Below, piece by piece: positions 4,840 through 33,967 of a DNA stretch of 64,000 nt. Origin of the DNA: a virus (Duplodnaviria; Caudoviricetes); the IMG/VR virus record IMGVR_UViG_3300027805_000006. The stretch is one strand, 5' to 3'. Position 1 is the first letter of the stretch. Every line of letters begins with the position of its first letter. The notes beneath the pieces were generated by a model, which searched no databases, was not told where the DNA came from, and worked only from the letters and a program-made list of their open reading frames with translations. The position numbers were made by a program, and so were the translations under genes.

Positions 4840-5658
4840 TTATACAACTGGTTCTGGTTCTGGTGGAACTGGTCCAATTGGCGGCTTCTGTTCGTAGTTA
4901 GGGCTGCTTGGGTCTGTTGTGTCAATAATCTCCTCAGCCAGCGGTGTATCAAACCTCACAATAGCACCGTCAGCATCCACTTCATTTACTTCCATACTTC
5001 CTAGGTCACCAATTCTAATGAAGATTTTTCTGACAAGGTCATCCTTTACGCCCATTGGAATGCTTAGATAGATGGGCATTTCAAAGGTTAGCGTCCATTG
5101 TACAATTCTTCTATCAGTTGAAGATGGATAATTTTCCTCATTAGCAATATCAGTAAGTTCAACTCGCGTCAATTTTGTCCAGTCAAATGGTCCATCTGAC
5201 TTTTGAATTTGAATATCAGGGTTGAACAGTACTAATACCTGTTCAAGTATCTGGTGCATCTGGTCCATATTTGATGAATAGATGCTTAGTTCAATTGTCG
5301 TATTGTATGGAATAGGCATTGCTCTTTTTACAACAGTCAAGTCATCAGGAAACACGCCGCCTACCGGCATAGTAACTCGCTGGTCTAATAGGCCTGGTGT
5401 TCTTCTTCTCTCTGGTGCTAGTGTAATGCTCTGCATATGAACTGCCATGACTGGCAGGCTGAACGTTCTATTTTGTGTATTGCCTGCCATAACTGCAGAA
5501 ACTACTCGGTCTCGGTGTCCAATCACAATTGGTACTGATATCAACTGCTGTTCATCACAAGAACCTTTACCTGTTTTAACGCACAGCCCATAGAATATGC
5601 TGCAGAACTGCAGCATATATGCTCGTATTTGACTGTTATAGAAGTAATGGTTTATCAT
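4840..5658 (-). CDS. gp15: Tail terminator / sheath stabiliser
   Basis: N-terminus HYFYNSQIRAY resembles T4 gp15 (YFYNSSFRRY). Also PIPYNTTIELSIYS..MDQMHQILEQVLVLFNP, and it lies between gp14 and gp18. Confidence 0.85.
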   Translation of the reverse strand: MINHYFYNSQIRAYMLQFCSIFYGLCVKTGKGSCDEQQLISVPIVIGHRDRVVSAVMAGNTQNRTFSLPVMAVHMQSITLAPERRRTPGLLDQRVTMPVGGVFPDDLTVVKRAMPIPYNTTIELSIYSSNMDQMHQILEQVLVLFNPDIQIQKSDGPFDWTKLTRVELTDIANEENYPSSTDRRIVQWTLTFEMPIYLSIPMGVKDDLVRKIFIRIGDLGSMEVNEVDADGAIVRFDTPLAEEIIDTTDPSSPNYEQKPPIGPVPPEPEPVV

Positions 5659-5664
5659 ACGTAT

Positions 5665-5671
5665 TATTTAA
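5665..5671 (-). promoter_or_regulatory. Late promoter-like box TTAAATA, 6 nt before the gp15 ATG
   Basis: Minus strand TTAAATA-ATACGT-ATG; no SD. Confidence 0.5.
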
Positions 5672-5689
5672 ACTGGGTTAGTTGAAACT

Positions 5690-7537
5690 TTACAACTTGC
5701 TTGTCAATGATTTCTTTTCTTCAAGGTTCAAAATCGCCAACTGTGATGGCTTGTGTGCAGAGCGTTCATTTCGCCTGTCAGTTTCAACGAAAATCCAGCG
5801 GTTCTTGACCGTGCTGAACTTATAAAGACGGGATGCAATCCTCATTTCTGGAGGATAGTTTAGTCTAAAGAACGAACCATCTGTTTGGCCTGCAACATCA
5901 GGTAGTTTAAAGCCCTCAGTGTAAGGCTGTCCATCTGGTGGCAGACCGTCTTCAACATAAAGACCTCTGCCATCATAACTACCAGGTCGATTAAACCTGT
6001 CCATACCAGATGCATTTTCACGAACGTTTGTTCCCTTCTCGGGAACAGCCTGTTCTGCTTCAGCCTGATTATTCTCTGTAACAGTTAGAGGTGCAGTTTG
6101 AATTTGCTCAATGCCATCAAAGAATGTTGCATCGTCAATTGAATATTTTTGCGTATTGATGGTGCCAAGAATGTCTCGGTGTTCCTGTCCTGGAATTAAC
6201 TGCTGTGCAGTGAATCGATAGAGGATAGGCTTCCACCCAGTGCTATAGCCCTCTGCTGACCAGCCCACATCAGTTATCTCCAGAAATTTGCGTACTGGCT
6301 TTAGGTTGTGGTCATACTGAATTTCTGCTGGAAGGTCAAGAACGTCACCTACGACAATTGGGCGCCCAAGTGCTCTTACCATTTCAGCAAATGAAAGAGT
6401 AAAGGTGTAAACATCTGCAATCTGGAAGCCAAACTTAGACATATCATTCATACCATCAAATGGCTGATACGATGCCTTAAGTTGAATACTGGATGTTGCG
6501 TAGTCTCTGTCTCTATTCTCCATCCAAAGTGTGTCTTGTATGTTATCAAGACTTGTAGCAGTATAGTCAAACAGTTCAAGTTTATCTACAGACCATGCTT
6601 CCCCAATACCACCAAGAAAAACAGTTGGCACAATTCTCCAGTACCTTGACGCTGATGACTGTTTGATGCTGATTGTTGCCGCTGTTGGAATATCAGGAAG
6701 GTTAACTACATCTACTCTAAACCAGTCAAGTTCTATAGGCACGGTAAAAAAATCACCTAGTGCAAATGGAATTGTTCCTGCTGTAATAGTGAATGAGCCT
6801 TCTTCACAGTTGAAGCGTTGGTTAACCGTCGCAACACCTACTACAGAAATTCCAGTGCTTTCCATAAACGTCACTGAGAATGTTGTGGCTGAGAGGGCTG
6901 AAAGCATAAACAAACCAGGTCTAGATGAAAGACCAGATCTAAATGCTTCAAATACTCCATTTCCAGTGCCGGTATATTCAACTTTGGTATAGTCGACCTT
7001 ATAGCCACCATTTGAGCGGTCAATTCTAACCTGTCTTGCCCTTACTGGCCCTGGCTGTGTAATCTTAAATGATGTTATGTGTTGTGCTGCAGAAACCCCT
7101 GGCGCATTTTCATCTTGTCCATAACTTGTTTGCCGCACACCAAAATCATAGCCTATCCATGCTGGTGTTAATAGTACGTCTGTGCTAGTTTCATCGCTTA
7201 CCCATGACGGAGCAAGAGAGTCAAATGCATTTGATGCATCTCCACTGGATGAAATTGCGCTTCCATTTCCAGTCAAGTCAATTAATTTTCCCTGTTCGTG
7301 AATTCCCAGCAGTTTGAAAACATTGATTGGCACACCAGAAATATTGAGTGCCTCTGCTGCTAGTTGCTCCTGGAAGTTGTTCTCTGGAACAGCACAGTCG
7401 CCTTGAGTGATAGTGAAGTCACCCTTACACAGATCGGGTGGGATATAAGGGCCTGGGCTAGGCAACGGAGAATTTGCAGGGTTATTGATTGACCCTGCAC
7501 CGTCTGGGCACTCAGTAATTGGAAGTTTGGATGTCAT
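5690..7537 (-). CDS. gp14: Neck/head-closure protein with large internal insertion
   Basis: gp14-like segments (AEALNISGVPINVFKL; ENRDRDY...FGFQIADVYTF; GDVLDLP...FLEITDV) flank an insert of about 250 aa with a discoidin-like part (AFD...W...WIGYDFG) and a GTGNG module. Confidence 0.75.
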   Translation of the reverse strand: MTSKLPITECPDGAGSINNPANSPLPSPGPYIPPDLCKGDFTITQGDCAVPENNFQEQLAAEALNISGVPINVFKLLGIHEQGKLIDLTGNGSAISSSGDASNAFDSLAPSWVSDETSTDVLLTPAWIGYDFGVRQTSYGQDENAPGVSAAQHITSFKITQPGPVRARQVRIDRSNGGYKVDYTKVEYTGTGNGVFEAFRSGLSSRPGLFMLSALSATTFSVTFMESTGISVVGVATVNQRFNCEEGSFTITAGTIPFALGDFFTVPIELDWFRVDVVNLPDIPTAATISIKQSSASRYWRIVPTVFLGGIGEAWSVDKLELFDYTATSLDNIQDTLWMENRDRDYATSSIQLKASYQPFDGMNDMSKFGFQIADVYTFTLSFAEMVRALGRPIVVGDVLDLPAEIQYDHNLKPVRKFLEITDVGWSAEGYSTGWKPILYRFTAQQLIPGQEHRDILGTINTQKYSIDDATFFDGIEQIQTAPLTVTENNQAEAEQAVPEKGTNVRENASGMDRFNRPGSYDGRGLYVEDGLPPDGQPYTEGFKLPDVAGQTDGSFFRLNYPPEMRIASRLYKFSTVKNRWIFVETDRRNERSAHKPSQLAILNLEEKKSLTSKL

Positions 7538-10275: not shown

Positions 10276-10283
10276 TATTTATG
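10276..10283 (-). promoter_or_regulatory. Late promoter-like box CATAAATA for gp13
   Basis: Back-to-back with the + strand box at 10306-10313. Confidence 0.65.
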
Positions 10284-21373: not shown

Positions 21374-24300
21374 TTACGCTGTGCCTGTTGTAATAAAGCC
21401 CCAAAGTTTTTCAGCAGAAGTCATCTCTGGTCGATTTAGCGATTTGAGCATGTTCTCTGTTGGGTCACCTTGAGAAGTTAAGAATGCAAGTGTCTGCTTC
21501 AAAACTTCAAGTTGCTGCTGCGCTACAGTCAAAAGTTCTGCTTGACTTAGCCCCTCTTTAGTTGCTGCTACCGCTGTTCCTTCTGCTGGAGTTGTTTCTG
21601 TTGTTGCTGGAGTTTCATTTTTATTTAGACCTGGCTCAACCACAGTTGGCTGTTTAGCAGGTTGAGGTGTTGCTACTTGTGGTGGTTGCTGCTGTGCTGG
21701 GGCTGCCTGAACTGCTTCTTTCTTTACTGGCTCTGCCTGCACGGTCTGTTTTGCAGGTTCTGCTTGAATATTCTCCTTCTTTGCAGGTTCTGCCTTTACA
21801 GGTTCTTCCTTCTTCTTTTCTTCCTTCTTTTTCTTTTCTTCTTCCTTTCTAGCCGCTTCAGCATTAACGTTTCTAACTGATTGAACGGTGCGAGAAGCAG
21901 ATGCAGCGAGGTCATCGAGAGTTGTCACTCTATCGTTAACTAGAACTTCTGTCTTCTTCTTTGATTTCTCTAACGCCTTTTGGTTTTCCTCACCGATGGA
22001 GCGCAGGGTTGCTCCTTCTTTTTTCCATAAGTCTTCACGCAGTTTTGCACCTTCTGCGATGCCTTGGTCAAGTTCATCTGCCTGTGCTCGCAGACCCTTT
22101 ACCCACTTGTTATCCTTGCCCACGAATGGAAGAGACTCAATAATTAACGCGAGGCCCTTCAGAATCCCGGCGCCTAGCATCTTCCAAAAGTCCACGAATG
22201 CAGAGGTACCGTAATCAATAATTTTTGTGGTGTTGACCTTGAAACTAATACCAAGTGCTTCAAATACTGAGTTTACGCCCCAGTCAAAAATCCTTGTAAA
22301 TCCAGTAAACAAACCATTTAACCCCGCAATTAACATTCCCCCTAATTTTCCAAACAATCCTTCGCCAAAGCCAAGTGCAGCGCCCATTTCACCAGTGAAT
22401 AATTCCTCAATAGCACTTATGATTCCACCAAGAAGAGCACTTCCTTTAAAGAAACCACTAATTGATGAAAATATTCCCTTGACTGCAGCAACTGCACCGT
22501 TAAACATACCAGATACTGAACCTACCGCCTTTGCCGCCAAACCAGAAATTGATGAAAATATTCCCTTGACTGCAGCAATTGCACCGTTAAACATACCAGA
22601 TACTGAACCTACCGCCTTTGCCGCCAAACCAGAAATTGATGAAAATGCGCTGGAAAACATACCAGTGACTGATGAAAAAATTCCCTTAAAAATTCCTGTT
22701 ATAGGGGTAAGTACTTTTCCAGCAGTTGTTGCAATTGTTGAAAATACACCTGAAACTTTTGAACCAAAATCTTTTAAGAATTTCATTGCACCAGTAGCAG
22801 CGCCAATTCCTTTGCCCTGTATGGCTGCAAGTATTTTGGCATACCACATTGACTGTATTGCAGTTTGTGCCACAAGGCCTGTCACCTCAATTGCAGCCTC
22901 TCCTAAAGGGTTCTTTGCAAAGCCGGAAAATACTGTCATTCCCTTTCCAATTGTCTGCAGAATTCCACCAGTCTCCTTTCCAATCTCTTCATTTTGTACT
23001 GGCCCTGCATCTGTCTGAAGTTTTGCTTTAGCTGCTGCCTTTTGTGCTTCTCCATACGGAGTTCCAGCAAGTTTTTCACTTAACTGTTCACCGATAAATT
23101 CTGCCTGAATATTTCCAGTATTTTGCATTGCCTGCAGACGAGATTCCATCTGACCAGATAATTCAACGAATCTCTTTTCTTCTTCTGGGGTTTTCCTTTT
23201 CTTTTGTGATAGCCTTGCTAGTTCTTCGGTTTCGCCAGCAGACATGCCAGTAATTGCGCCAGCCTGACGTATTAGTCCTGCTGCCTGCATTCGTTGCTGG
23301 GCAGTTGCCTTGCGCTGGGCAAGCAGCGCATTAGTAAGCCCTGCCGATGCCTCTTTGGTCAAGCCCATCTGCTGACCTAAAGTAGCAGTATCCATCAATT
23401 GCGCCATCCGGGCCTGGCGTTCAGCAGGTGCAAGTCCTATTAAATCCTCCTGTACGTTTTCATTACTAGCAATGTCCTTCATCAATTCTTGGAAGGCAGT
23501 TGAAGTCATCATCGTAGTTTTACGAAGCTTCTCAAACTGCTTTACCTGCGCATTAGTAGCATCTGCCTGCTTTTCCATTGGAATGCCAAGCATTACAGAA
23601 TTAGTCTGCATTGATGCTGCTAACCTTTCTGCTGCTGGGCCAAATGTGCCTAGTCGTGCAAGGTCATGTGTTGTCTTATCAACTCTATCGCCGAAGTCAT
23701 CAAAACTTCTTGCTCTTACAACCGCTGCCTGGTTGTCCTCCATCATCTCTGTGTATTCCTGCAGACTCATACCTGCAGTAATTGCATCACCATAAAGACC
23801 GGCTAGACTACTTGCTGCGCTAACACCGCGGGCCTGAAGATAAAAAATATCTTTGCCTAAACCAACAAATGCATCACCTAATATTCTAAGCGCATTTCTT
23901 AGCTCTATTTTGAATTTTTCAGTCTCTTCTCCCGCTTCTTCAACTTTGCCAGAAAAGTCATCTACATCTCTGCCTGCCGACTCAAGTTCTCCAGCAAAGT
24001 CATCGACATCACGTGCAGAACTGCGAATAGTTGCTGTAGATTCGGCAACGGCTTCTCCGAGGTCACCAGCAAAGTCATCTATATCCCTAACAGTTGCCTT
24101 TACGGTTTCTACAGACCCAGCAAAGTCGTCTACTGAGCGTACAAGGGCATCACTACCTTCAGCCGGCCCCTTAACCTCTGCAACACTGTCAATCTTTGAA
24201 ACTGCGCCCGTAAAGGAAGAGCCAAGGGCTCTAATTCCCTTTCTCATTCCAAGAAGGTCGCCTCTTACACCCCTAAAAGATTTGCCTAATTTTTCTGCTT

Positions 24301-24499
24301 CAAATGTCAGATCTTTTAACCCACGGGTGGCAACAATAATCGTCTTATCAAGAGATTCTGAATCTTGACTTTGCTTACCTCCCTTGCCACCAGGCAGCCT
24401 TCTTTGCTCAGACGGAGCAGCGCCCTTGTTAGCAAGTAGCGACTGCTCAAGCAGTTTCTCTATTCGTTGCAGGGTTTTTAATGCTTGGGTTTCATCCAT
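21374..24499 (-). CDS. Tape-measure-like protein
   Basis: 1041 aa, largely helical and Ala/Gly-rich with amphipathic F-periodic repeats. Lies head-to-head with gp26/gp51 and has a late box at 24548. Confidence 0.75.
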   Translation of the reverse strand: MDETQALKTLQRIEKLLEQSLLANKGAAPSEQRRLPGGKGGKQSQDSESLDKTIIVATRGLKDLTFEAEKLGKSFRGVRGDLLGMRKGIRALGSSFTGAVSKIDSVAEVKGPAEGSDALVRSVDDFAGSVETVKATVRDIDDFAGDLGEAVAESTATIRSSARDVDDFAGELESAGRDVDDFSGKVEEAGEETEKFKIELRNALRILGDAFVGLGKDIFYLQARGVSAASSLAGLYGDAITAGMSLQEYTEMMEDNQAAVVRARSFDDFGDRVDKTTHDLARLGTFGPAAERLAASMQTNSVMLGIPMEKQADATNAQVKQFEKLRKTTMMTSTAFQELMKDIASNENVQEDLIGLAPAERQARMAQLMDTATLGQQMGLTKEASAGLTNALLAQRKATAQQRMQAAGLIRQAGAITGMSAGETEELARLSQKKRKTPEEEKRFVELSGQMESRLQAMQNTGNIQAEFIGEQLSEKLAGTPYGEAQKAAAKAKLQTDAGPVQNEEIGKETGGILQTIGKGMTVFSGFAKNPLGEAAIEVTGLVAQTAIQSMWYAKILAAIQGKGIGAATGAMKFLKDFGSKVSGVFSTIATTAGKVLTPITGIFKGIFSSVTGMFSSAFSSISGLAAKAVGSVSGMFNGAIAAVKGIFSSISGLAAKAVGSVSGMFNGAVAAVKGIFSSISGFFKGSALLGGIISAIEELFTGEMGAALGFGEGLFGKLGGMLIAGLNGLFTGFTRIFDWGVNSVFEALGISFKVNTTKIIDYGTSAFVDFWKMLGAGILKGLALIIESLPFVGKDNKWVKGLRAQADELDQGIAEGAKLREDLWKKEGATLRSIGEENQKALEKSKKKTEVLVNDRVTTLDDLAASASRTVQSVRNVNAEAARKEEEKKKKEEKKKEEPVKAEPAKKENIQAEPAKQTVQAEPVKKEAVQAAPAQQQPPQVATPQPAKQPTVVEPGLNKNETPATTETTPAEGTAVAATKEGLSQAELLTVAQQQLEVLKQTLAFLTSQGDPTENMLKSLNRPEMTSAEKLWGFITTGTA
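22461..22646. repeat. 87-bp (29-aa) near-perfect tandem duplication in the tape measure gene
   Basis: Units start at 22461, 22548 and (partial) 22635, with one mismatch between the full copies; peptide SISGLAAKAVGSVSGMFNGA(I/V)AAVKGIFS. Confidence 0.95.
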
Positions 24500-24563: not shown

Positions 24564-25343
24564 ATGTATATGGAAAATGCGCAAAATCCACTTTTGCAGA
24601 AACTAAAACTTCCGGGCCGAGTATTTCAACTACCATCGCGCGGCGCACTTTACAGAAATGGTGAAGTTAATTGCATGGAAGGTGAAATTCATGTGCACGC
24701 GATGTCAGCATTAACCGAAATTAACCTAAAAAACCCAGACCTGTTGTTCAATGGAAAGGCTCTCGAAGAGGTATGCAGGGAATGCATTCCAGAAATTAAG
24801 AAGCCCACTGAACTTTTTGGCAGAGATGTAGATGCACTAATGTTTTTCCTTCGTGTAGTAACATACGGGCCTCAGTTTGAAATCAATGTAAAGCACACCT
24901 GCGACGAAGCAAAGAATCATTCCTATGTGGTTGATTTGGAGAAGATGATTCAGGAAATGCGCCCACTTGACCCAACAACAAAGTTTGAGGTAGTTCTCCA
25001 GAATGGGCAAAAAGTAACCCTTCACCCAGTCAAGTTTGAGCATATGATTAAACTTTTCCAGATGAATACTGGAAAACAAGAGTTGAATTCAGATGACGTC
25101 AAAGCCAATATCATCTTTAACCTAGTCAATTTGGTTGAGAGCGTAGATGGTATTACAGACCGTGCAATGATTGAAGAATGGGCTAAGTTGCTTACCACTC
25201 CAATGCAGAATAAAATAACTGAAGTCATCGAGAAGATGAATCAGTGGGGCCCAAACCAAACTATTCAACTGAAGTGCAAGGACTGCAGCGAGATGATGAA
25301 TGTTGAACTGCCTCTGAACCCAATAAGTTTTTTCACCGAATGA
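24564..25343 (+). CDS. gp26: Baseplate hub assembly protein / tail chaperone, T4 gp26-like
   Basis: LPSRG..Y; EI.L.NPDLLFNG; L...DVDAL..FLR..TYG; HTC...; CKDC..; C-terminal PISFF. Confidence 0.75.
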   Translation: MYMENAQNPLLQKLKLPGRVFQLPSRGALYRNGEVNCMEGEIHVHAMSALTEINLKNPDLLFNGKALEEVCRECIPEIKKPTELFGRDVDALMFFLRVVTYGPQFEINVKHTCDEAKNHSYVVDLEKMIQEMRPLDPTTKFEVVLQNGQKVTLHPVKFEHMIKLFQMNTGKQELNSDDVKANIIFNLVNLVESVDGITDRAMIEEWAKLLTTPMQNKITEVIEKMNQWGPNQTIQLKCKDCSEMMNVELPLNPISFFTE

Positions 25344-25564
25344 TCATTTCTGGTGAGGCGAGCAGGATCGCCGAGATGATCAATTCAATGGGTATAGAAG
25401 TAAGAAACCTGCTCAAGTCAGCAATTGAGATTGCTTACTTTTCAAGAGGCTCCATTCAATATGAATCAGTACTGCATATGACCCCGCTTGAGCGGGATAT
25501 TGCAGTTGAATTTATCAATAGGAGACTTGAGTTAGCCTCCAAGATGTCATTCCCTGTATTCTGA
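25340..25564 (+). CDS. gp51: Baseplate hub assembly catalyst, gp51-like
   Basis: 74 aa, ATGA overlap with gp26; Y.SVLHMTPLERDIAVEFI..R pattern. Confidence 0.6.
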   Translation: MIISGEASRIAEMINSMGIEVRNLLKSAIEIAYFSRGSIQYESVLHMTPLERDIAVEFINRRLELASKMSFPVF

Positions 25565-25567
25565 TAA

Positions 25568-26803
25568 CTACGTAGTCAGTTTGATGCCAATGGTGTTGAT
25601 GATGCGTGGCAGTTCATCAATATACTGCCGCGGCACCCCATCAATTCCATCGTGCATCATAATGCCGTGACGGTCAATCTCATTCCAAATTAGGTAGCGC
25701 GCCCCTCTCTCCCACTCAAAGTAGTTTGAGAATACGCGTTTTTGGTTCTTGAGCGATGGGTTAAGTTTCAAGTTTGCTGCACACACCGCCTTCTTTGCAC
25801 GTGAGTACTGCCTCGAAATAGTTTGAAGCCGAGCGCCAATCTTCTCAAGACGACTTTGACTTACATCTCCTGACGCTTGAATGATAAGTTGAGCGGTAAC
25901 TGAAAAAGAATTGCCTCCTGACATAATTGCTGGTGAAATTCTTGACCCATTTGCAAGGCTCATACATACCTTCTTTACAACAGAAATTCCTTCTTCATTC
26001 CACTCAAGCCCGAGAGTGTTTTCACAGAGGTCCTTTCGCCACTTCTGCTTATCGTCGATTAGTTGTTTAAGGTCTGGGTAAAGCATCTTCACGAGACGTT
26101 GCTTAGTACTATAAATTTCACTAATGTGTGACATTAAATATTGCGTATATGCACTATCAATATCAATTGATGCACCAAACAATTTTTCACGCAACCAAGA
26201 TGGCCACGTCTCAATTGCAGCAATTGGCCAAATTGAGGTATCACGCTGCTTCAATTTACCAGCAGGTTGAAAAACAAAATTTACTTCGTCTTGCTGAAGA
26301 AGCCACTTGACAGGCGCAATTAAATCAACACGACCCTCACTATAAAGTTGGTCAAGTATATTTGACGAGTTGCTTCTGATGATATAGACCTTTGATATAA
26401 CTCCATCTGGGCGTTCAGCAGGCACAAACTGAAGATCAAGTTCTGTTGTCTGAGCCTCAATATTATTTTCTAACTTTTTTGGAATAAGCAGTGATATCTG
26501 CTTGTCATCATTTGCAATATTGTAGCCTAGTTGCTGTACGTCAAAAAAATAATCTAGGGCACGCCTATAGTCATATACCCAATCCCTAAGAGCAACGAGC
26601 CGCAGTTTAATTGGATAGAATGCTCTGCACGCAGCGTTGCGCATTGAATGCGAGTGCAGATTTGCAAGAAAAAGAATTAAGTCTTGCCTATCTTGCTGCC
26701 TCTGTCGATGAATTCTACTCTTGTCGTTGTAGAAGCGACTGACGTGAAGAGGATCTGCAGGGCTGATCACCCGGCTTGCCTTCACCCTGTAGATTGCGCT
26801 CAC
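25568..26803 (-). CDS. Divergent family-A / T7-like nucleic acid polymerase core
   Basis: G(K)L..., LREKLF, motif A IDIDSAY (D214), motif B SVVKKVCMSLANGS (K277) and motif C MMHDG (D385), in PolA order and with PolA-like spacing. Confidence 0.6.
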   Translation of the reverse strand: MSAIYRVKASRVISPADPLHVSRFYNDKSRIHRQRQQDRQDLILFLANLHSHSMRNAACRAFYPIKLRLVALRDWVYDYRRALDYFFDVQQLGYNIANDDKQISLLIPKKLENNIEAQTTELDLQFVPAERPDGVISKVYIIRSNSSNILDQLYSEGRVDLIAPVKWLLQQDEVNFVFQPAGKLKQRDTSIWPIAAIETWPSWLREKLFGASIDIDSAYTQYLMSHISEIYSTKQRLVKMLYPDLKQLIDDKQKWRKDLCENTLGLEWNEEGISVVKKVCMSLANGSRISPAIMSGGNSFSVTAQLIIQASGDVSQSRLEKIGARLQTISRQYSRAKKAVCAANLKLNPSLKNQKRVFSNYFEWERGARYLIWNEIDRHGIMMHDGIDGVPRQYIDELPRIINTIGIKLTT

Positions 26804-27027
26804 ACGCGCCCGGTCTTCAACTTCTTATAAATTGACTTTACGCTATCTGGTCGAACAAGCAGTTGATAGCGTGGTGCTGAAGGCTGACTATTTTCCGATT
26901 TTGCAAATCTATTTTCGTACGTCTTAACGACGTATCCATCTTTCTTAATATCCTTACCTGCCTCTGATAAGGTAGTAGCGAGACCCAGCGCCGCCCGCCG
27001 CATCCTCTTTGCTTGTTTTCCGTTCAT
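26800..27027 (-). CDS. Small basic hypothetical protein
   Basis: 75 aa, SD AGGAG, stop overlaps the start of the polymerase-like gene. Confidence 0.7.
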   Translation of the reverse strand: MNGKQAKRMRRAALGLATTLSEAGKDIKKDGYVVKTYENRFAKSENSQPSAPRYQLLVRPDSVKSIYKKLKTGRV

Positions 27028-27048
27028 ATATATTCTCCTATAAAAAGG

Positions 27049-27651
27049 TCACCAGATCCCAGCGTACTTGGGATTTAAAACAGTATCTGCCCAGTCAGGG
27101 ATATATCCAAAATTTTGCTTAAAAAATAACACTTCCCAGTTTTTGGATGATGCTGTGCCAAGCTTAGAGAGCCTAGGTCTTACGATTATAAATCGTATAT
27201 CCTGCGGCTGCCTTAATCCCTTCACAAGGAGAGGTTCTTTAACACCCATCATTTGAATGATTGTATCACTTGGGCTGATCTGTTCCAAATGAAACGCAGG
27301 TATTGGGAGTTGAATTGAGTGAATGACTGAAGGATGTGGAGTTGGCAGTGCCCTAAGACCCTTGCTTGATTCACAAAATCTAACGATTGAATTTAAAAAT
27401 GACTGATACGTAAAGTCATTCACACCGCCTCGCTTAACGTGCGCTTTCACCATATCACGGTCGGGTGGGAAATAAGTTGTTTTTACATCGCCTCTCTGCT
27501 TGGCATTGTACGGCCCAAGGAACTCTGCGGCCTGCACATGCAGGTTGTAGTGGTTTGAAAGAACTGGAATAAGGTCTGAAAAGTCTTGAATTTTTCCTTG
27601 ACGTGAAGCATCAAGCCGGGCATTCCACCTAGGCAGTGTAGTAGTTTCCAT
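27049..27651 (-). CDS. Hypothetical protein, possibly a TnpB-like N-terminal (REC/WED) fragment lacking RuvC
   Basis: 200 aa. The ORF is well supported; the TnpB resemblance is by-eye only (R.RL...YN; Q..L...; IRFIIVRPR...NWEVLF). Confidence 0.55.
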   Translation of the reverse strand: METTTLPRWNARLDASRQGKIQDFSDLIPVLSNHYNLHVQAAEFLGPYNAKQRGDVKTTYFPPDRDMVKAHVKRGGVNDFTYQSFLNSIVRFCESSKGLRALPTPHPSVIHSIQLPIPAFHLEQISPSDTIIQMMGVKEPLLVKGLRQPQDIRFIIVRPRLSKLGTASSKNWEVLFFKQNFGYIPDWADTVLNPKYAGIW

Positions 27652-27657
27652 AATAGT

Positions 27658-28236
27658 TTAAACTTTAGAATACCAAAATTCAATAATTGGTAATAGGTCA
27701 TCAAGATAATAGACGTCAATGCTCTTGCTTATTCCAGCAGCTAAAAGAGTTAGGCGCGGCTTAACACCATTCTCTGTAAGTACACGATAATCAGCTCGGA
27801 CGTCTAAAGTATCCACTGCAACAAAAATAGCAGTTCTATTCCACTTAAAGATAAGCATAGGAGACTTATCAATTTTGCAAGCGTCAACTGCTGCTTCATC
27901 GAACCATTTAAACACATTCGCAGTATTTGAAACAAGCGATGTGAAATTATCTGGAGTAGAGTATGATTTACATTCTATAGAATGTTTAAAATTAAAGCCC
28001 TCTTTTCTCTCATTTACTGGAACAACGTCGCCAACAAAGATCTTAAGTGCTTCCTCGCCGAACATTTGACCTATAGTTTCAAAGTTCTTTCCGCCCACAC
28101 GAGCGCCCGACCCGGGTGTACGGATAAAATTAAGTGGTGCAAGTGCAGCGGTAAGCTTTTTTGCAACGGTGCCTTCGAAGCCGTTGCCTTTTCCCTTGGA
28201 ATTAAATCGCTTTTTCTTGTCTTTTGGCTGTTCCAT
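27658..28236 (-). CDS. Holliday junction resolvase (PD-(D/E)XK, Hjc-like)
   Basis: NSKGKGNGFE..VAKKL; RTPGSGA; GDV; SIECK; W..EA..DA.....PMLIFK.NR. Confidence 0.85.
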   Translation of the reverse strand: MEQPKDKKKRFNSKGKGNGFEGTVAKKLTAALAPLNFIRTPGSGARVGGKNFETIGQMFGEEALKIFVGDVVPVNERKEGFNFKHSIECKSYSTPDNFTSLVSNTANVFKWFDEAAVDACKIDKSPMLIFKWNRTAIFVAVDTLDVRADYRVLTENGVKPRLTLLAAGISKSIDVYYLDDLLPIIEFWYSKV

Positions 28237-28930
28237 TTTTTACCATCTTTGCTAATTGTTTGGATGTTATTCCAAGTTGACGAAGTGCTGCACACCCAGA
28301 TTTATATGTGATACCATTCACGGTATACTGCACTGCATTTACTGGGGTTCTACCTACATTCATTTTCCCGACCTCAGCCATTGCAGTGCGCCGCTTGGGA
28401 TCTTCAAGCATAATTTTTTGTGCTGCCGCCATCTTTGCACGAGTTTCTGCAGAGCGTGTTATTCCTTTAAGCCCATCAGAGGTCTTCCTCTTCTCTTCGG
28501 CGGTTCGCGGAATACCCAGCTTGGCATTCCTCATCTTCTTCTTTACTTCTGGGTTTGCTAATGCAACCTTGACCCCGGCACTGATCTTTTCTATGATCTC
28601 GCTCCTACGCAGCATAGTATCTTCGCCCCATCCTCCCTCCGCACGCGCTATGTTAAAGAGTATTATCCCCTCAGATCTAAGGCGATCTATGTGCTCGTTT
28701 TCAATTGCAAAGTAGAATGCCTTGTCATAAGGACCAAGCAATTCGGTGATCTCATAGCTAAACGCTTCAGCCCCATACTTCTGCCAAGCATGCTGCAGAT
28801 GCCTGTTGAAATGTTTATTGTTTAGTAACAATCCAACGTGCACGCCCCACCGCTTGTCTATGTTCTTGGCTGAGCCCAAGTAGACCTTTTGATTAGCTGA
28901 ACATGTAATAGTGTAGATGCCTCCGCGCAT
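28202..28930 (-). CDS. Free-standing GIY-YIG homing endonuclease (I-TevI-like, NUMOD3 repeats)
   Basis: GIYTITCSANQKVYLGSAKNIDKRWGVH...L.....H.N.HLQ.AW.KYG; repeats R(S/T)AE...K. Confidence 0.92.
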   Translation of the reverse strand: MRGGIYTITCSANQKVYLGSAKNIDKRWGVHVGLLLNNKHFNRHLQHAWQKYGAEAFSYEITELLGPYDKAFYFAIENEHIDRLRSEGIILFNIARAEGGWGEDTMLRRSEIIEKISAGVKVALANPEVKKKMRNAKLGIPRTAEEKRKTSDGLKGITRSAETRAKMAAAQKIMLEDPKRRTAMAEVGKMNVGRTPVNAVQYTVNGITYKSGCAALRQLGITSKQLAKMVKNGTAKRQEKAI

Positions 28931-28934
28931 ACCC

Positions 28935-28942
28935 TATTTATG
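28935..28942 (-). promoter_or_regulatory. Late promoter-like box CATAAATA, 4 nt before the endonuclease ATG
   Basis: CATAAATA-GGGT-ATG. Confidence 0.55.
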
Positions 28943-28980
28943 CGTAGTGGGAAAGCAAAAGGGTCAGGTCGACCTGATGT

Positions 28981-29058
28981 TTACTCGATGTCCTTAAGCT
29001 TTCGCTTCTGTGGCGGCTCGGGAGATACGTCTATAGCGGCGATATTTTGTTTTTGCAT
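28981..29058 (-). CDS. Possible 25-aa small ORF (MQKQNIAAIDVSPEPPQKRKLKDIE)
   Basis: Fills an intergenic gap directly downstream of the GATAAATA box at 29087-29094; weak SD. Confidence 0.35.
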   Translation of the reverse strand: MQKQNIAAIDVSPEPPQKRKLKDIE

Positions 29059-29086
29059 AATAGTTAAAATAGGTATGGGATAAAAA

Positions 29087-29094
29087 TATTTATC
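29087..29094 (-). promoter_or_regulatory. Late promoter-like box GATAAATA
   Basis: Intergenic, downstream of the 29129 stop. Confidence 0.55.
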
Positions 29095-29128
29095 GCCCCC
29101 GTTTCAACCTTTTTTATGCAATCAACAT

Positions 29129-29596
29129 TTATTTCTTTTCAGTGAAGTTGTCTTCGAAGTACTTTGCCTTTTGCACCGTGTAGGTGAACTCATCTTCATC
29201 AGTCTGGCGGATTAGATAGTCGCCCTTCTTAATGGTTTCAGTGTTACCCTCAAGGTCAATTTTTGAAGTATCACCTTCATACTTAAACGCTTCTACTTCT
29301 TCAGCATCTCGATAGACAATAAATCCCTCAGCATCTTCTTTTTGGTTTGCTCTTACAGGAACATAGTTATCCTCTAGTTCCTCTGAATCCATAGTGGAAA
29401 CAAGTTTGCGCTTGCCTGAAGTATCAGAGAACACCTCATATTCTGTTGGGACGCTATCTGGTACTTTTTTGACCATATAGACAGCATTAGGCACATAGTT
29501 AAGTGCGCTGTCTTTATTTTCCTTCCAGATATCAGCAGCCTTGATTGTTTCAAGGGCTTCTTCACTGATAGACAAAAGTTCCTGGAGAAGTTTCAT
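29129..29596 (-). CDS. Acidic protein with leader MKLLQE and a PGDYG-like domain
   Basis: C-terminal ETIKKGDYLIRQ...F.Y......F..NF; candidate internal protein. Confidence 0.7.
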   Translation of the reverse strand: MKLLQELLSISEEALETIKAADIWKENKDSALNYVPNAVYMVKKVPDSVPTEYEVFSDTSGKRKLVSTMDSEELEDNYVPVRANQKEDAEGFIVYRDAEEVEAFKYEGDTSKIDLEGNTETIKKGDYLIRQTDEDEFTYTVQKAKYFEDNFTEKK

Positions 29597-30026: not shown

Positions 30027-31766
30027 TTATTGAACTACAACTTCGGAAAATCCATTTATTTTTCTAACAAGAAGGCTGTTGTCAAGTCTTCCGGCAATTG
30101 CTGGGTGATGACTAATTACAAAGATGCTCATTTCTTCATCTCGTGCCTTCTCTTTCAGAAGCCGGACAATTGAATCGATTCCGTTTTGGTCCAGGGCGCC
30201 ATCTAACTCATCAATTAACAGAACATTAGTACGAGCGTGTAGGTGGTGCAGTACGTCTCTAAATGCAAGCATTAGCGCAGTATTCACCCGCTTCTTTTCA
30301 CCAGCGCTCAGATTTCCAAAGTCTAGTTCTCTCCCAAACTCAGAAACAGTACAACTCATATCTGCATCAAACTTTACTAGGTGCGGCAGACCAAGAGTAC
30401 GAGTGTAGAGATTTACTCTGGAGTTTAGGAATGGAATTGTTTGATTGATAATTTTCCTGCGCAGGAAAGAATTTTTATCTGTAAGCAGTTTTACAAGAAA
30501 GTTTTGGTGGTCAAGCCTTTTACGAAGGACATCAACTTTAGAAAAGTCAATCGTATCTACCGCCTCATTTAAAAGAGTATCTCGAGCCTCGACGTGCGGG
30601 TTTTCAGCCAACTTTAACTCTTCAATTTTGTTTCGAAGAGATGCAGCATTTTCTCGTGCTGTCAGCAGGTCAGCAAGGTCAGGGTGTTTGATTTCACTTT
30701 CGAGAGTGGCAAGTCGGTCCTTCTTTTGCTTTAACTCTACATCGAGAGTTGTTTCCTTCTCTTCAGTTTCAAGAAGTTTTGCACCTTTTTCTTCTAGCAA
30801 TTGACGAAGGGCGCTGAGACGCTCTGGCGCACTTGCATATGTCTGCGAGCAGTATGGACACCTTTGGTCTACCAAGTGGCTCTCTTCACCTATTAACTTT
30901 TCTACTTCTTTTGAAAGGAACTGCTTGTCCTTCTTCAATGGCACTAGACGCGCAGAAAGGTATGCGCTCTCTTCCTTCAGTTTATCCTTCTCATCATGTA
31001 GAGACTTCTCAGAGACAAAATCGATTGTTGCAAGCGCCTCAAGCGTTGCCTCGATATTCGTAATATTTTCTGCTCTAGACGTTTCCCACCGACTAACGCG
31101 GTCTTCTGCTTCCTTCAGGTGCTTCTTGTGAAGGTCAACTGCAACCTGTTGCTGAGCACAAACGGCTTCTGCAATCTTAATATCACTTTCTGTTTGCCTG
31201 ATTTTCTCCTTTAGCATCTGCGCCTTCTCAGAAAGCATTGTGATGTTGAATAACTCCTCAATCTGGTTGCGCTGCTGGGCAATTGGTAACTGCAAGAAGG
31301 CAGGAGAATTTCCAGAGAAAATTACTGTCTTTGTAAAAAGGTCGTATGAAATTCCGATGATGCTCTCAATTAACTCGTCGCACTCTGTCACACCCTTGCC
31401 TGGAGTAATGTCCTCACCATCGCGCTTGATTTCAATCTTGTACTCTTCACCTCGCGCTCGATAAATCTCATATTCAATGCCACCTTTTTCAAAAATAAGA
31501 CGAACTTCCATCAGCGTATTCTTAGTGGCATTGGTACTATTGATTAGACGCTGTAGGCTAATGCTATCAAATGGCTTATTGAAGATTGCGTAGCAAAGAG
31601 CATTAATGATTGATGACTTGCCGCTGCCATTGCTTCCACCATTGTCTAGGTTTTGTCCTTCAATCGATACCGTCTTCTGCTCAAAGAGGTCAAATACCTG
31701 TGTTTGGTTACCGTATGACAGAAAGTTTCTGACTTCGAGCGTCTTGAAGATAAGAGGGATTGACAT
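30027..31766 (-). CDS. gp46: Recombination endonuclease ATPase subunit (Rad50/SbcC-like)
   Basis: Walker A GGSNGSGKSS, zinc hook CPYC, signature LSAGEK, Walker B LLIDE, H-loop SHH. Confidence 0.96.
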   Translation of the reverse strand: MSIPLIFKTLEVRNFLSYGNQTQVFDLFEQKTVSIEGQNLDNGGSNGSGKSSIINALCYAIFNKPFDSISLQRLINSTNATKNTLMEVRLIFEKGGIEYEIYRARGEEYKIEIKRDGEDITPGKGVTECDELIESIIGISYDLFTKTVIFSGNSPAFLQLPIAQQRNQIEELFNITMLSEKAQMLKEKIRQTESDIKIAEAVCAQQQVAVDLHKKHLKEAEDRVSRWETSRAENITNIEATLEALATIDFVSEKSLHDEKDKLKEESAYLSARLVPLKKDKQFLSKEVEKLIGEESHLVDQRCPYCSQTYASAPERLSALRQLLEEKGAKLLETEEKETTLDVELKQKKDRLATLESEIKHPDLADLLTARENAASLRNKIEELKLAENPHVEARDTLLNEAVDTIDFSKVDVLRKRLDHQNFLVKLLTDKNSFLRRKIINQTIPFLNSRVNLYTRTLGLPHLVKFDADMSCTVSEFGRELDFGNLSAGEKKRVNTALMLAFRDVLHHLHARTNVLLIDELDGALDQNGIDSIVRLLKEKARDEEMSIFVISHHPAIAGRLDNSLLVRKINGFSEVVVQ

Positions 31767-32806
31767 TACTTCAACTCCTCATATAGGTCAACTAGCATCG
31801 AGGGGTCAATTGTCTGCGATGGCTGGACGCCCTCTGTTATCAACTTGCGCACCGTATTGTCAAGTGATGTTAGGTCAATTTCACCTTCCATTTCTAATCC
31901 TTCTTCTAGTTGCTCTTTCCTTGCCATAAGGTCCTCTTCAACTGAAAATTCTCTTAGCCCCAGTGTCTTTATCATTTCTTCCTTAAGCGCCTGCACGTCG
32001 CTGTAGCCAATATCAACATCCAACATACAGCGTACGCGACTGTTTTCCGGAAAATATGCTTCACCATCTAACACGCGGCTCAACTTCGTCTTGAAGAAAA
32101 GTGGTGCTTTTTCCCAGTTATGAAACCAAATATCTTCATTTTCAACGTCAAACACCGCGCATCCTCTTTCACTGTCACCAGCATCCCCAAAATTAGTTGG
32201 AAATGTATTGCCAATGTAGATTATGTTTTTGAATGTTTGTCTCTTATGAAAGTGCCCACTGAAGATAAACTGCGGTCCAGAAAAATCCTCAGGATCGGGT
32301 CCGTGCTCCATCCGCCTATCAGCACCAGTGACAATAAAGTTTCTAAATTCAAAGTGACCAATCACATAACGACTTGAATTGATGTCAGGCACCTGTATTG
32401 GATATTCTTCCCTAAAGAGATAGGGAGCCGCATAGAATTTTTTAGTAAGTTTCTTTGGCTCACTTACAAGGTGAAAGTTGTTTAGGTCATTGAAGATATC
32501 AGTCGAAAATATCTCTCTGTTTGAGCGATGGTAGAGGTCGTGATTGCCGATAATAAAAATCACAGGTAAGCCGATAGCATTTAACCGCCTTGCACCCTCT
32601 TGAGAAAATTTCAGGGTCTTGACATTTATCTGATTTCTATTTTCAAACCAATCACCTAAAAATGCAATATGTGAAGGTTTTTCCTGCTTTGCTACTTCGA
32701 TAAGCCAATCGATATACTGCAGATTATCAAGATTGTGCTGCTCAGAGTTATTGCGACACCCCCAGTGGATGTCAGTAAACATTAGAAGTTTTTTGATTTC
32801 CTGCAT
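31766..32806 (-). CDS. gp47: Recombination endonuclease nuclease subunit (Mre11/SbcD-like)
   Basis: FTDIHWG, LGDWFE, GNHD, GHFE, SGHFHKRQ, YIG. Confidence 0.96.
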   Translation of the reverse strand: MQEIKKLLMFTDIHWGCRNNSEQHNLDNLQYIDWLIEVAKQEKPSHIAFLGDWFENRNQINVKTLKFSQEGARRLNAIGLPVIFIIGNHDLYHRSNREIFSTDIFNDLNNFHLVSEPKKLTKKFYAAPYLFREEYPIQVPDINSSRYVIGHFEFRNFIVTGADRRMEHGPDPEDFSGPQFIFSGHFHKRQTFKNIIYIGNTFPTNFGDAGDSERGCAVFDVENEDIWFHNWEKAPLFFKTKLSRVLDGEAYFPENSRVRCMLDVDIGYSDVQALKEEMIKTLGLREFSVEEDLMARKEQLEEGLEMEGEIDLTSLDNTVRKLITEGVQPSQTIDPSMLVDLYEELK

Positions 32807-33967
32807 TTATTTTTCCACGTAAAAAATTTCACCACAATCCCATACAGGGCTTTTCAACCCGTGCTTAAATTGTGGATGAATTTTATATTCCTTTGGTTCA
32901 TCAAACCCAATTATGTTTAGATTAAACTGCTGTGGAAGTGGCCAAGCACCACTAACCTTTAAACACTTACCGTCAAGTAAAAGTTGTTCATCTTTTGAAA
33001 TATTAATGTAGTTTTCAAACAGCCTATCCTTTACTTCATTTGGCATTATATCAATTTCATCTTCAAACAGCGATATAAGCGTAATTGACTTTCTTAGGCA
33101 GGATATTAATTTTTCTTGGTGATAGCCATTATAGGCACCTGCTGCTTCACTATGCCAGTATAAGCCGTTAATTTCAATTGCAAGGTTATGTTCAGGCAGA
33201 TAGAAATCCAGTTCCCTCGGCTTTATAATTTTTCTATCATTTTCAACAAAATTGATGTTATTTTCTAACAACCACGTTTTAACGCGTATGTGTTGAGTGC
33301 TAATCTGGTGTGGAAAACATTTCTTGCACCTTGGTATTTGAGAGCACCAAACACGTCGTGAAAAAATATGACCACAAATATGCTGTAGTTTTACTTCTTG
33401 AGAACTAGTAGGATTTTCAACAAGTGATAGATTTTCTTTTTCAAGCAAGAAAGACAATCTTCTGGTGAATGCCTGAGACTTAATTTCCTGGGATTGATCA
33501 CGCAATTTGCCTAGATTAAAGGCGTTCTCTACACCATATTTTTTAAGCATTACTTTTTTAAAATAGGAACCTCCAAAATAGTGCTCTGGTGTGGAGCCAT
33601 ATTTCTGAAGAACCGTTGCTGCTGCTTTATGTTTTGTTACTTCTAATTTTTGAGGATAGTCTATTCCATATTTTTTAATGTTAGATTGCTTTCTAGCATA
33701 CTGAGTTGTCTCAGCGTTAGCGCTGCATCTTGCAGAACAAAACTTTCTAAAAGTGCCTCTTGCGAATATTGTAGATTGACCACAAATAGCACACCCCTCA
33801 GGTTGCCCGTTTTGATCTATCCAAGCAACCTCAGCAGGTGTTCTTCCATTTAGTAACTTTTTGATTTGCGGAGTTACTAACTTTTTCCAATTGGAATTTA
33901 TTGAACCATCCTCTTTTATAATTGCTGATTTTTTAAGAATATCAGTTATCACTGCTGTTGCCACCAC
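32807..33967 (-). CDS. Hef-like / PD-(D/E)XK homing endonuclease between gp55 and gp47
   Basis: Cys motifs CAICG...FCSARCS, KYG repeats, RELDFYLPEHNLAIEINGLYWHSE, LISLFEDE, C-terminal VWDCG. Confidence 0.85.
   Translation of the reverse strand: MVATAVITDILKKSAIIKEDGSINSNWKKLVTPQIKKLLNGRTPAEVAWIDQNGQPEGCAICGQSTIFARGTFRKFCSARCSANAETTQYARKQSNIKKYGIDYPQKLEVTKHKAAATVLQKYGSTPEHYFGGSYFKKVMLKKYGVENAFNLGKLRDQSQEIKSQAFTRRLSFLLEKENLSLVENPTSSQEVKLQHICGHIFSRRVWCSQIPRCKKCFPHQISTQHIRVKTWLLENNINFVENDRKIIKPRELDFYLPEHNLAIEINGLYWHSEAAGAYNGYHQEKLISCLRKSITLISLFEDEIDIMPNEVKDRLFENYINISKDEQLLLDGKCLKVSGAWPLPQQFNLNIIGFDEPKEYKIHPQFKHGLKSPVWDCGEIFYVEK

Follow-up and report, generated by a model that had tools for sequence, protein, structure and literature searches.

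TV-Pols, which have a minimal superfamily-A core, are predicted primase-polymerases of transposons and viruses, and one has been reported in phage Ma-LMM01 (PMC2579912). The only biochemically characterised relative of the TV-Pol kind is CcPol-MP of SCCmec, in which CcPol extends primers with deoxynucleoside triphosphates (dNTPs) and, together with its small partner MP, primes de novo using dNTPs; CcPol-MP also has terminal-transferase activity (PMC7581432), and MP was later predicted to adopt an oligonucleotide/oligosaccharide-binding (OB) fold (PMC10061031). No minimal PolA-like enzyme is described in T4-like phages in a 2021 survey of jumbo phages (PMC7824862) or in a 2024 study of polymerase swapping (PMC11348598), and a 2023 reclassification of PolA makes no mention of jumbo or T4-like phages (PMC10201439). 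Here, we describe a polymerase-like gene located at positions 25568–26803 (minus strand) of a 64,000-nucleotide (nt) stretch of viral DNA, hereafter the window, from the Caudoviricetes record IMGVR_UViG_3300027805_000006 of IMG/VR. Its product belongs to an undescribed family that is not a member of any named polymerase family, and the main new result of our analysis is the linkage of its gene to resolvase genes. All conclusions rest on metagenomic sequence and predicted structure.

The gene encodes a protein of 411 amino acids (aa), as a first-pass annotation of the window had proposed; it starts with GTG and ends with a stop codon at 25568–25570, and both this open reading frame (ORF) and its homologues are close to 410 aa long. 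The GTG shares 4 nt with the TGA of an upstream 75-aa ORF (GTGTGA), a stop/start overlap of the pattern typical of translational coupling. We take the long GTG start to be correct because the homologues begin at the same point, their N-termini aligning with that of the window protein (MSAIYRV versus MTTIYRL); shorter products of 400 and 358 aa were picked by some gene callers. Two parts can be distinguished: an α/β N-terminal domain (residues 1–132; 26408–26803, minus strand), which is family-specific and weakly winged-helix-like, and a polymerase core (residues ~133–411; 25571–26407, minus strand) comprising a thumb stub (residues 146–169), a β-hairpin (residues 173–192), the palm and the fingers.

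An AlphaFold2 model of the protein was calculated from 67 sequences (predicted local distance difference test score, pLDDT, 91.7; predicted template modelling score, pTM, 0.85) and compared with 48,161 chains using VIA-align, without a Foldseek pre-filter. The top 20 chains were all family-A DNA polymerases or T7-like RNA polymerases, aligned over residues ~130–411. Pol θ ranked best (Z 10.3; 242 residues, root-mean-square deviation 4.2), ahead of a Taq-derived polymerase (Z 9.8), Klenow (Z 9.5) and Aquifex Pol I (Z 9.2), with yeast mitochondrial RNA polymerase (Z 8.6), Pol ν (Z 8.5), T7 gp5 (Z 8.1) and T7 RNA polymerase (Z 8.0) coming next. Pol γ, DpoZ, N4 vRNAP and N4 RNAPII gp16 (404 aa, Z 5.3) scored lower, and family-B polymerases followed at Z ~5. 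Foldseek placed Klenow first among PDB entries (E 0.037, probability 0.99), while 29 of the 30 best rows among Swiss-Prot models were Pol I, θ or ν, aligned to residues ~144–410. Matches in BFVD include a 'Putative DNA polymerase I' and an 'A-family DNA polymerase', and its rows contain giant-virus proteins of 1019 and 1054 aa (E 9e-4 and 0.12, respectively), which we guess to be fusions of a TV-Pol with a helicase.

Along the model, a strand is followed by helices 146–155 and 159–169, a hairpin (strands 173–181 and 187–192), a strand ending at D214, helical fingers bearing K277, a long helix and the turn containing H384–D385. This predicted order of secondary structure fits PolA topology, although the thumb is a stub of two short helices of ~10 residues each. 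We consider it very likely that the protein has an active polymerase fold. The first-pass annotation had read it as a family-A or T7-like polymerase core with neither an exonuclease nor a promoter-binding domain: the confident model matches such polymerases only, over residues ~130–411, and neither domain is present, but the separate N-terminal domain of ~130 residues had been missed. When folded alone (pLDDT 81.7), this domain gave a best VIA-align Z of 4.2, followed by winged-helix DNA-binding domains at Z 3.0–3.9, and Foldseek returned no match to the isolated domain; a role in DNA targeting is only a lead suggested by the model.

The sequence motifs behind the initial polymerase reading all occur in the translated ORF at the residues claimed for them: AGKLKQR (residues 181–187), WLREKLFG (residues 203–210), SIDIDSAYTQ with D214, ISVVKKVCMSLANGS with K277 and GIMMHDGID with H384 and D385. 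D214 and K277 are 63 residues apart and K277 and D385 108, a PolA-like spacing that agrees with the values originally given for motifs A to B and B to C. The reported likeness of motif B to T7 RNA polymerase likewise holds, since RSVTKRSVMTLAYGS of the T7 enzyme is identical at 8 of 15 positions, with Tyr639 matched by Asn285. In the model, the proposed catalytic Asp of motif A, D214 (26162–26164, minus strand), lies at the end of strand 211–215, and the proposed motif C, H384–D385 (25649–25654, minus strand), occupies a turn before strand 386–390. The O-helix motif B spans residues 273–287 (25943–25987, minus strand), with K277, M281, N285, G286 and S287 conserved, and the hairpin Arg R187 (26243–26245, minus strand) falls in strand 187–192; translation confirmed the coordinates of R187 and D385.

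None of D214, K277, H384 and D385 varies in 67 homologues, nor in 36 diverse homologues that extend down to 27% identity. Conservation of the two Asp residues, which the first-pass annotation had made one test of its reading, is thus complete in both sets. Across the 36 diverse members, the invariant residues (F87, G93, G182, R187, P193, W200, P201, R205, F209, D214, Q221, R256, K277, G286, Y361, W364, E365, R369, G380, H384, D385 and G389) concentrate at the motifs listed above. Invariant Q221 stands at +7 from D214, equal to the D-x6-Q spacing of T7 RNA polymerase (DGSCSGIQH).

PolA, T7 RNA polymerase and TV-Pols have an Arg four positions ahead of the O-helix Lys; in the window family, this position (I273) is Ile or hydrophobic in nearly all members, not Arg. 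The O-helix Tyr position is N285, a nearly invariant Asn, and the PolA Phe position is Met, as in T7 RNA polymerase. Hence, of the family-A motif B, R-x3-K-x3-F-x3-Y-G, K277 and G286 are kept while R, F and Y are replaced, and motif C reads HDG in place of HDE. Position 219, the steric-gate candidate by motif register, varies among Y, F, L and M. R256 is invariant and located in an earlier fingers helix than K277; it may substitute for the missing O-helix Arg.

A nuclease gene accompanies the polymerase gene in every genome examined. On the minus strand of the window, genes for a gp55-like protein, an HNH homing endonuclease, gp47-like and gp46-like proteins, two small ORFs, a GIY-YIG protein, a PDDEXK_15 nuclease, a 200-aa ORF and the 75-aa ORF precede the polymerase gene in this order, and the order is the same in relatives at 52%, 47% and 39% identity. 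In the most divergent members (27–30% identity), the PDDEXK_15 gene abuts the polymerase gene, with a 4-nt overlap in L078 and a position 38 nt upstream in L079 and L080. The gp47/gp46 pair stands directly before PDDEXK_15 in L077, L079 and L080, and it precedes the polymerase gene wherever the flank could be read (the window, L004, L077, L079 and L080). Among 12 large genomes, PDDEXK_15 occurs once each in eight, always 0.15–2.7 kb upstream of the polymerase gene and on the same strand, and in the other four (G002, G007, G011 and G012) that slot is filled by endonuclease VII (PF02945, the T4 gp49 family). A junction nuclease of either type is therefore found just upstream of the polymerase gene in 12/12 large genomes, which upholds and extends the link to a Holliday junction resolvase first noted in the window: the polymerase gene is linked to junction-resolving function in every genome examined.

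Two unrelated nuclease folds exchanged in a single slot imply equivalent function. The window PDDEXK_15 protein (27658–28236, minus strand) matches PF24608 (E 3.6e-23) and phrog_244, annotated 'RusA-like Holliday junction resolvase'. Given this label and the interchange with endonuclease VII, PDDEXK_15 is very probably a junction-resolving nuclease. Searches of the neighbourhoods examined revealed no D5-like helicase, integrase, resolvase-type recombinase or transposase, no iteron-like repeats were found around the polymerase gene, and the polymerase module contains no helicase gene, that for gp41 in G001 being ~54 kb from the polymerase-like gene.

Two further ORFs lie between the nuclease and the polymerase genes. 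The 75-aa ORF (26800–27027, minus strand; phrog_15472) encodes a basic protein of a conserved family (MNxKxAKxxR ... IYRxLKK) and is present in 10/12 large relatives, always just upstream of the polymerase gene; its product is a candidate partner. A predicted complex of the two proteins scored 0.01 with the tool verdict 'no answer', a result that counts neither for nor against binding. The 200-aa ORF (27049–27651, minus strand) also represents a conserved family but is a facultative module member, occurring in 7/12 relatives, and it had no match in Pfam, PHROG, NCBIfam, PADLOC or the PDB. Comparison of both products with PDB profiles yielded noise only, neither having a recognisable fold.

The window is part of a 104-kb IMG/VR contig that CheckV rates as 26% complete. 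Its T4-type core genes encode the major head protein, portal, a tape-measure-like protein, gp26-like and gp5-like baseplate proteins, gp46/gp47 and a gp55-like late sigma factor; relatives reach 336–368 kb at 97–100% completeness, three of them with terminal repeats. The phages carrying the gene are uncultured T4-like jumbo phages. Five relatives of 336–368 kb each encode a family-B polymerase and a gp41-like helicase, and in 6/6 near-complete relatives a gp61-like primase of 333–376 aa adjoins the gp41-like helicase; Pfam searches of the near-complete relatives for PolA and T7 RNA polymerase found none. The polymerase-like gene is present as a single copy in 12/12 large genomes. With PolB, gp41 and a gp61-like primase all in place, it replaces neither the replicase nor the primase, in line with the earlier proposal of an accessory enzyme. 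Replacement of the primase by the polymerase-like protein had been considered and is ruled out by the gp61-like gene beside gp41 in these six relatives.

By sequence, the family stands apart. A word-indexed search found 272 homologues at E ≤ 0.01, most of 405–425 aa and all unnamed or 'hypothetical', and an exhaustive HMMER search of 1.84 billion representatives returned only 39 clusters, with no tie to another family. Scans of the 411-aa protein against Pfam (E ≤ 0.1), PHROGs, NCBIfam and PADLOC gave no match, PF00476 (PolA) and PF00940 (RNA_pol) both failed to detect it, and PDB sequence and profile searches produced no real match; a PDB hit to TraH (E 0.19) was discarded as spurious. In hhalign comparisons, the family profile reached no significance against T7 gp5 (E 0.18 with the single sequence and 0.079 with a T7 DNA polymerase-like profile, which is shallow, its members being at least 85% identical), T7 RNA polymerase (E 0.12) or N4 RNAPII (E 0.77, and 0.19 with the N4 RNAPII profile). 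The local pairings are nevertheless those expected, though below significance: QPAGKLKQRDTSIWPI was paired with the motif-2 hairpin NPNGAVTGRATHAFPN of T7 gp5, and VKKVCMSLANGS with CKQAIMTALYGS of N4 RNAPII, at motif B. PF00940 is carried by nearly all of the 120 N4 RNAPII homologues listed.

The family profile found nothing in Microcystis phage Ma-LMM01 at E ≤ 10, and ESM Atlas searches by features and by shape gave nothing usable. No match was obtained by tblastn with the window protein and two divergent homologues against 50,697 phage records, which indicates a clade without a cultured representative in that collection, nor by megablast with 12 kb of the window. The family is thus a very divergent branch of its own, placed by its predicted structure and its motifs.

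Comparison with described enzymes places this branch near several of them and inside none. Like TV-Pols, it has a minimal superfamily-A core without exonuclease, a size within 400–600 aa and a role as an extra polymerase in viruses beside the normal replicase; it shares the hairpin (strands 173–181 and 187–192) with the invariant R187, and D214 and D385 are invariant. We propose that R187 corresponds to the motif-2 Arg (R of NPNGAVTGRATHAFPN in T7 DNA polymerase) and to the conserved hairpin Arg of TV-Pols. The TV-Pol thumb centres on two antiparallel helices, and helices 146–155 and 159–169 of the window protein are at the right place, but with only ~10 residues each. The family differs from TV-Pols in that the Arg of the fingers RxxxK is not kept (I273), the N-terminal domain is α/β rather than all-helical as in TV-PolN, and the gene is tied to a junction nuclease and gp46/47 instead of a D5-like helicase, an integrase or a transposon.

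CcPol-MP, one of the PolA-SSB primases of SCCmec and Bacillota mobile elements, is likewise a truncated PolA-type enzyme without exonuclease and with a small protein encoded alongside. However, CcPol is Pol I-like by sequence (15–22% identity) and keeps the ribonucleotide-discriminating residues, and its partner is encoded downstream, has a predicted OB fold and shares the operon with a helicase, whereas the small ORF in the window is upstream and basic, with no linked helicase.

The family-A DNA polymerases (Klenow, Pol θ, Pol ν and T7 gp5) are the best structural matches and have the same order of motif-2 Arg, motif A Asp, motif B Lys and motif C His-Asp at similar spacing. The window core is smaller (~280 versus ~400 aa), with a thumb of two 10-residue helices and no 3'–5' exonuclease; its motif B is without R, F and Y, HDG stands for HDE and PF00476 gives no match. 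The likeness to T7-like RNA polymerases resides in motif A (D-x6-Q) and motif B (K-x3-M-x3-x-G-S), and the N4 RNAPII catalytic subunit gp16 (PDB 6dt7), which acts with a second small subunit, is of similar length at ~400 aa. Here the differences are the change of Tyr639 to Asn, the lack of promoter-recognition elements, the absence of a PF00940 match, the lower N4 RNAPII score (Z 5.3) and a recombination rather than a transcription context. Because RxxxK, an association with a helicase or a transposon and an all-helical N-terminal domain all failed to appear, and no sequence link was found, the family is not placed in any named one; from its modelled fold, it would be a new variant within the PolA/T7 RNA polymerase/TV-Pol superfamily.

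We favour the interpretation that the protein is a TV-Pol-like minimal DNA polymerase, possibly a primase too, that works together with the resolvase and gp46/47 on intermediates of recombination or repair, and assign it a probability of about 0.5. A core of ~280 residues (thumb stub, Arg hairpin, palm with two Asp residues and helical fingers with the O-helix Lys), following the 130-residue N-terminal domain, would carry out template-directed DNA synthesis on such intermediates. It could fill gaps or extend 3' ends at resolved branches and D-loops, and it might also prime its own synthesis, an ability proposed for TV-Pols and demonstrated for CcPol-MP. We infer catalytic activity, a DNA rather than an RNA product, priming, and partnership with the nuclease or the small neighbours.

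Several observations weigh against this interpretation. Gene linkage is no proof of a shared pathway. The O-helix Arg, which binds the nucleotide phosphates, and the O-helix Tyr are both absent (I273 and N285), so substrate handling may differ from that of every characterised relative, and motif A (D-x6-Q) and motif B (K-x3-M-x3-x-G-S) are closer to T7 RNA polymerase than to Pol I. Finally, there is no significant sequence or profile link to PolA, T7 RNA polymerase or a TV-Pol-bearing phage, so that homology is deduced from predicted structure plus motif logic. A bolder version of the favoured interpretation, which we put forward only tentatively and consider less likely than not, would make the family a third, so far unrecognised branch of minimal PolA-superfamily enzymes: a resolvase-coupled primase-polymerase that restarts or completes synthesis at T4-type recombination intermediates, its nucleotide site altered by the loss of the O-helix Arg and Tyr and by conserved Asn285 and Arg256, and its N-terminal domain a novel DNA-targeting one.

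The resemblance of motif A and motif B to DGSCSGIQH and RSVTKRSVMTLAYGS of T7 RNA polymerase raises the alternative of a minimal DNA-dependent RNA polymerase of the T7 or N4 RNAPII type, whose task would be to transcribe some of the phage genes or to supply recombination-dependent replication with RNA primers or R-loops. VIA-align matches to yeast mitochondrial RNA polymerase (Z 8.6), T7 RNA polymerase (Z 8.0) and N4 RNAPII gp16 (Z 5.3) are consistent with it, and N4 RNAPII proves that a T7-like catalytic subunit of ~400 aa exists. We nonetheless think this unlikely. The Tyr with which T7 RNA polymerase reads the 2'-OH is a nearly invariant Asn in the window family, the equivalent of T7 Gly542, by inferred motif register, is Y, F, L or M, and PF00940 detects nearly all N4 RNAPII-like proteins listed but not this family. 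The polymerase matches in the Swiss-Prot fold search are DNA polymerases only, and DNA polymerases have the best VIA-align Z. Moreover, the phage has a gp55-like late sigma factor, which in T4 means that the host RNA polymerase transcribes the late genes, a gp61-like primase is already present, and the neighbouring genes encode DNA nucleases, not transcription factors. The loss of the O-helix Arg and Tyr, together with the nearly invariant Asn and with R256 invariant elsewhere in the fingers, could instead mark a specialised nucleotidyltransferase performing template-independent 3'-tailing, Pol θ-like end-joining or synthesis of a short nucleic acid against host defence. Its very short thumb implies low processivity, Pol θ is the top structural match, though tied with others, and the terminal-transferase activity of CcPol-MP offers a precedent (PMC7581432). 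Still, in PolA enzymes the counterparts of R205 and of R187 in its conserved hairpin are the residues that grip primer and template, the genes strictly linked to the polymerase gene are those of recombination nucleases, PADLOC gave no match and no defence or anti-defence genes are linked; such an enzyme seems rather improbable.

Two other explanations strike us as very improbable. TV-Pols are typical of transposons and small viruses, one being present in Ma-LMM01 (PMC2579912), and homing endonuclease genes lie nearby, as might be expected if a selfish mobile element of the TV-Pol type within the phage genome used the protein as its replicative primase-polymerase. Yet 12/12 genomes, and every short contig examined, have one copy of the gene in an unchanged syntenic position, with no D5-like helicase, integrase, resolvase-type recombinase or transposase adjacent, and divergence down to 27% identity with synteny kept indicates vertical inheritance. 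The gene also adjoins the gp26-like baseplate hub and tape-measure-like genes, at the edge of that cluster, and this location and the missing O-helix Arg and Tyr would suit a non-catalytic polymerase relic acting as a DNA-binding or structural (virion) protein. Against such a relic speak the family-wide invariance of both metal-binding Asp residues, motif C His, O-helix Lys and hairpin Arg and the fact that the structural genes occupy the opposite strand or are read separately.

The first-pass annotation had also assigned the polymerase gene to a late operon, which remains unproven: the gene is co-directional with early/middle-type genes, and only degenerate NATAAATA boxes occur ~2 kb upstream. 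In T4, gp55, gp47 and gp46 are early or middle genes, and the polymerase gene is co-directional with homologues of all three. Exact copies of the T4 late promoter TATAAATA occur only twice in the window, both before structural genes and neither near the polymerase gene, and its one-mismatch matches are not enriched overall (89 versus 77 expected). One-mismatch NATAAATA boxes are found on the coding strand 20–50 nt before many structural genes, for example at 10276, 13347, 18829, 24548, 34506, 44613, 58075 and 61491, suggesting that the late-promoter consensus of this phage may tolerate any first base. Two of them (29094–29087 and 28942–28935, minus strand) precede the run from GIY-YIG to polymerase, ~2 kb upstream of the polymerase gene, and no NATAAATA box lies directly before the polymerase gene or the 75-aa ORF. 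About one-third of the sampled words of 25000–29200 are contained in one freshwater metatranscriptome.

Further upstream on the minus strand, the gp46-like (SbcC/Rad50; 30027–31766, phrog_77, E 1e-88) and gp47-like (SbcD/Mre11; 31766–32806, phrog_100, E 1e-57) genes together head the conserved block, and an HNH homing-endonuclease-like gene (32807–33967; phrog_3339, phrog_559) separates the gp47-like from the gp55-like gene. The GIY-YIG homing endonuclease gene (28202–28930, minus strand; PF01541, phrog_314) shares 35 nt with the start of the PDDEXK_15 gene; another GIY-YIG gene (3559–4302) is at this place in L058, whose polymerase is 37% identical, so the insertion site is old or recurrent. 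L058 also has a nucleoside 2-deoxyribosyltransferase-like gene (5523–6029; PF15891, E 2e-31) directly upstream of the polymerase-like gene. In G010, which carries PDDEXK_15 upstream, a 55-aa endonuclease VII remnant with an in-frame TGA is found just downstream of the polymerase gene. The polymerase-family match at G001:C1:36932-38173 spans one TGA, which may be the stop of an overlapping upstream gene.

At its other end, the minus-strand run meets the gp26-like baseplate gene head-on. The gp26-like hub gene (24564–25343) and a 74-aa ORF (25340–25564) overlap by ATGA, and this unit, on the other strand, ends 3 nt from the stop of the polymerase gene, leaving no intergenic terminator between the convergent units. 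The 1041-aa tape-measure-like protein (21374–24499) contains near-identical tandem segments (GIFSSISGLAAKAVGSVSGMFNGA...) and a Lys/Glu/Pro-rich low-complexity stretch near its C-terminus.

The core of ~280 aa is among the smallest in the PolA/T7 superfamily and is without two hallmark residues of the O-helix. The enzyme could therefore reveal what is essential for catalysis, priming and sugar choice, with CcPol-MP as a working model for the capabilities of a minimal PolA, and might be engineered as a compact scaffold. In turn, the fact that PDDEXK_15 and endonuclease VII complement each other in their distribution supports naming PF24608 a junction-resolving nuclease. In textbooks, recombination-dependent replication is modelled on T4-type phages, for which the family-B polymerase gp43 is considered sufficient. 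A clade of T4-like jumbo phages keeps a second, unrelated polymerase tied to resolvase and Mre11/Rad50 genes, and this conserved linkage points to an undescribed step of DNA synthesis at recombination intermediates in the T4-type system.

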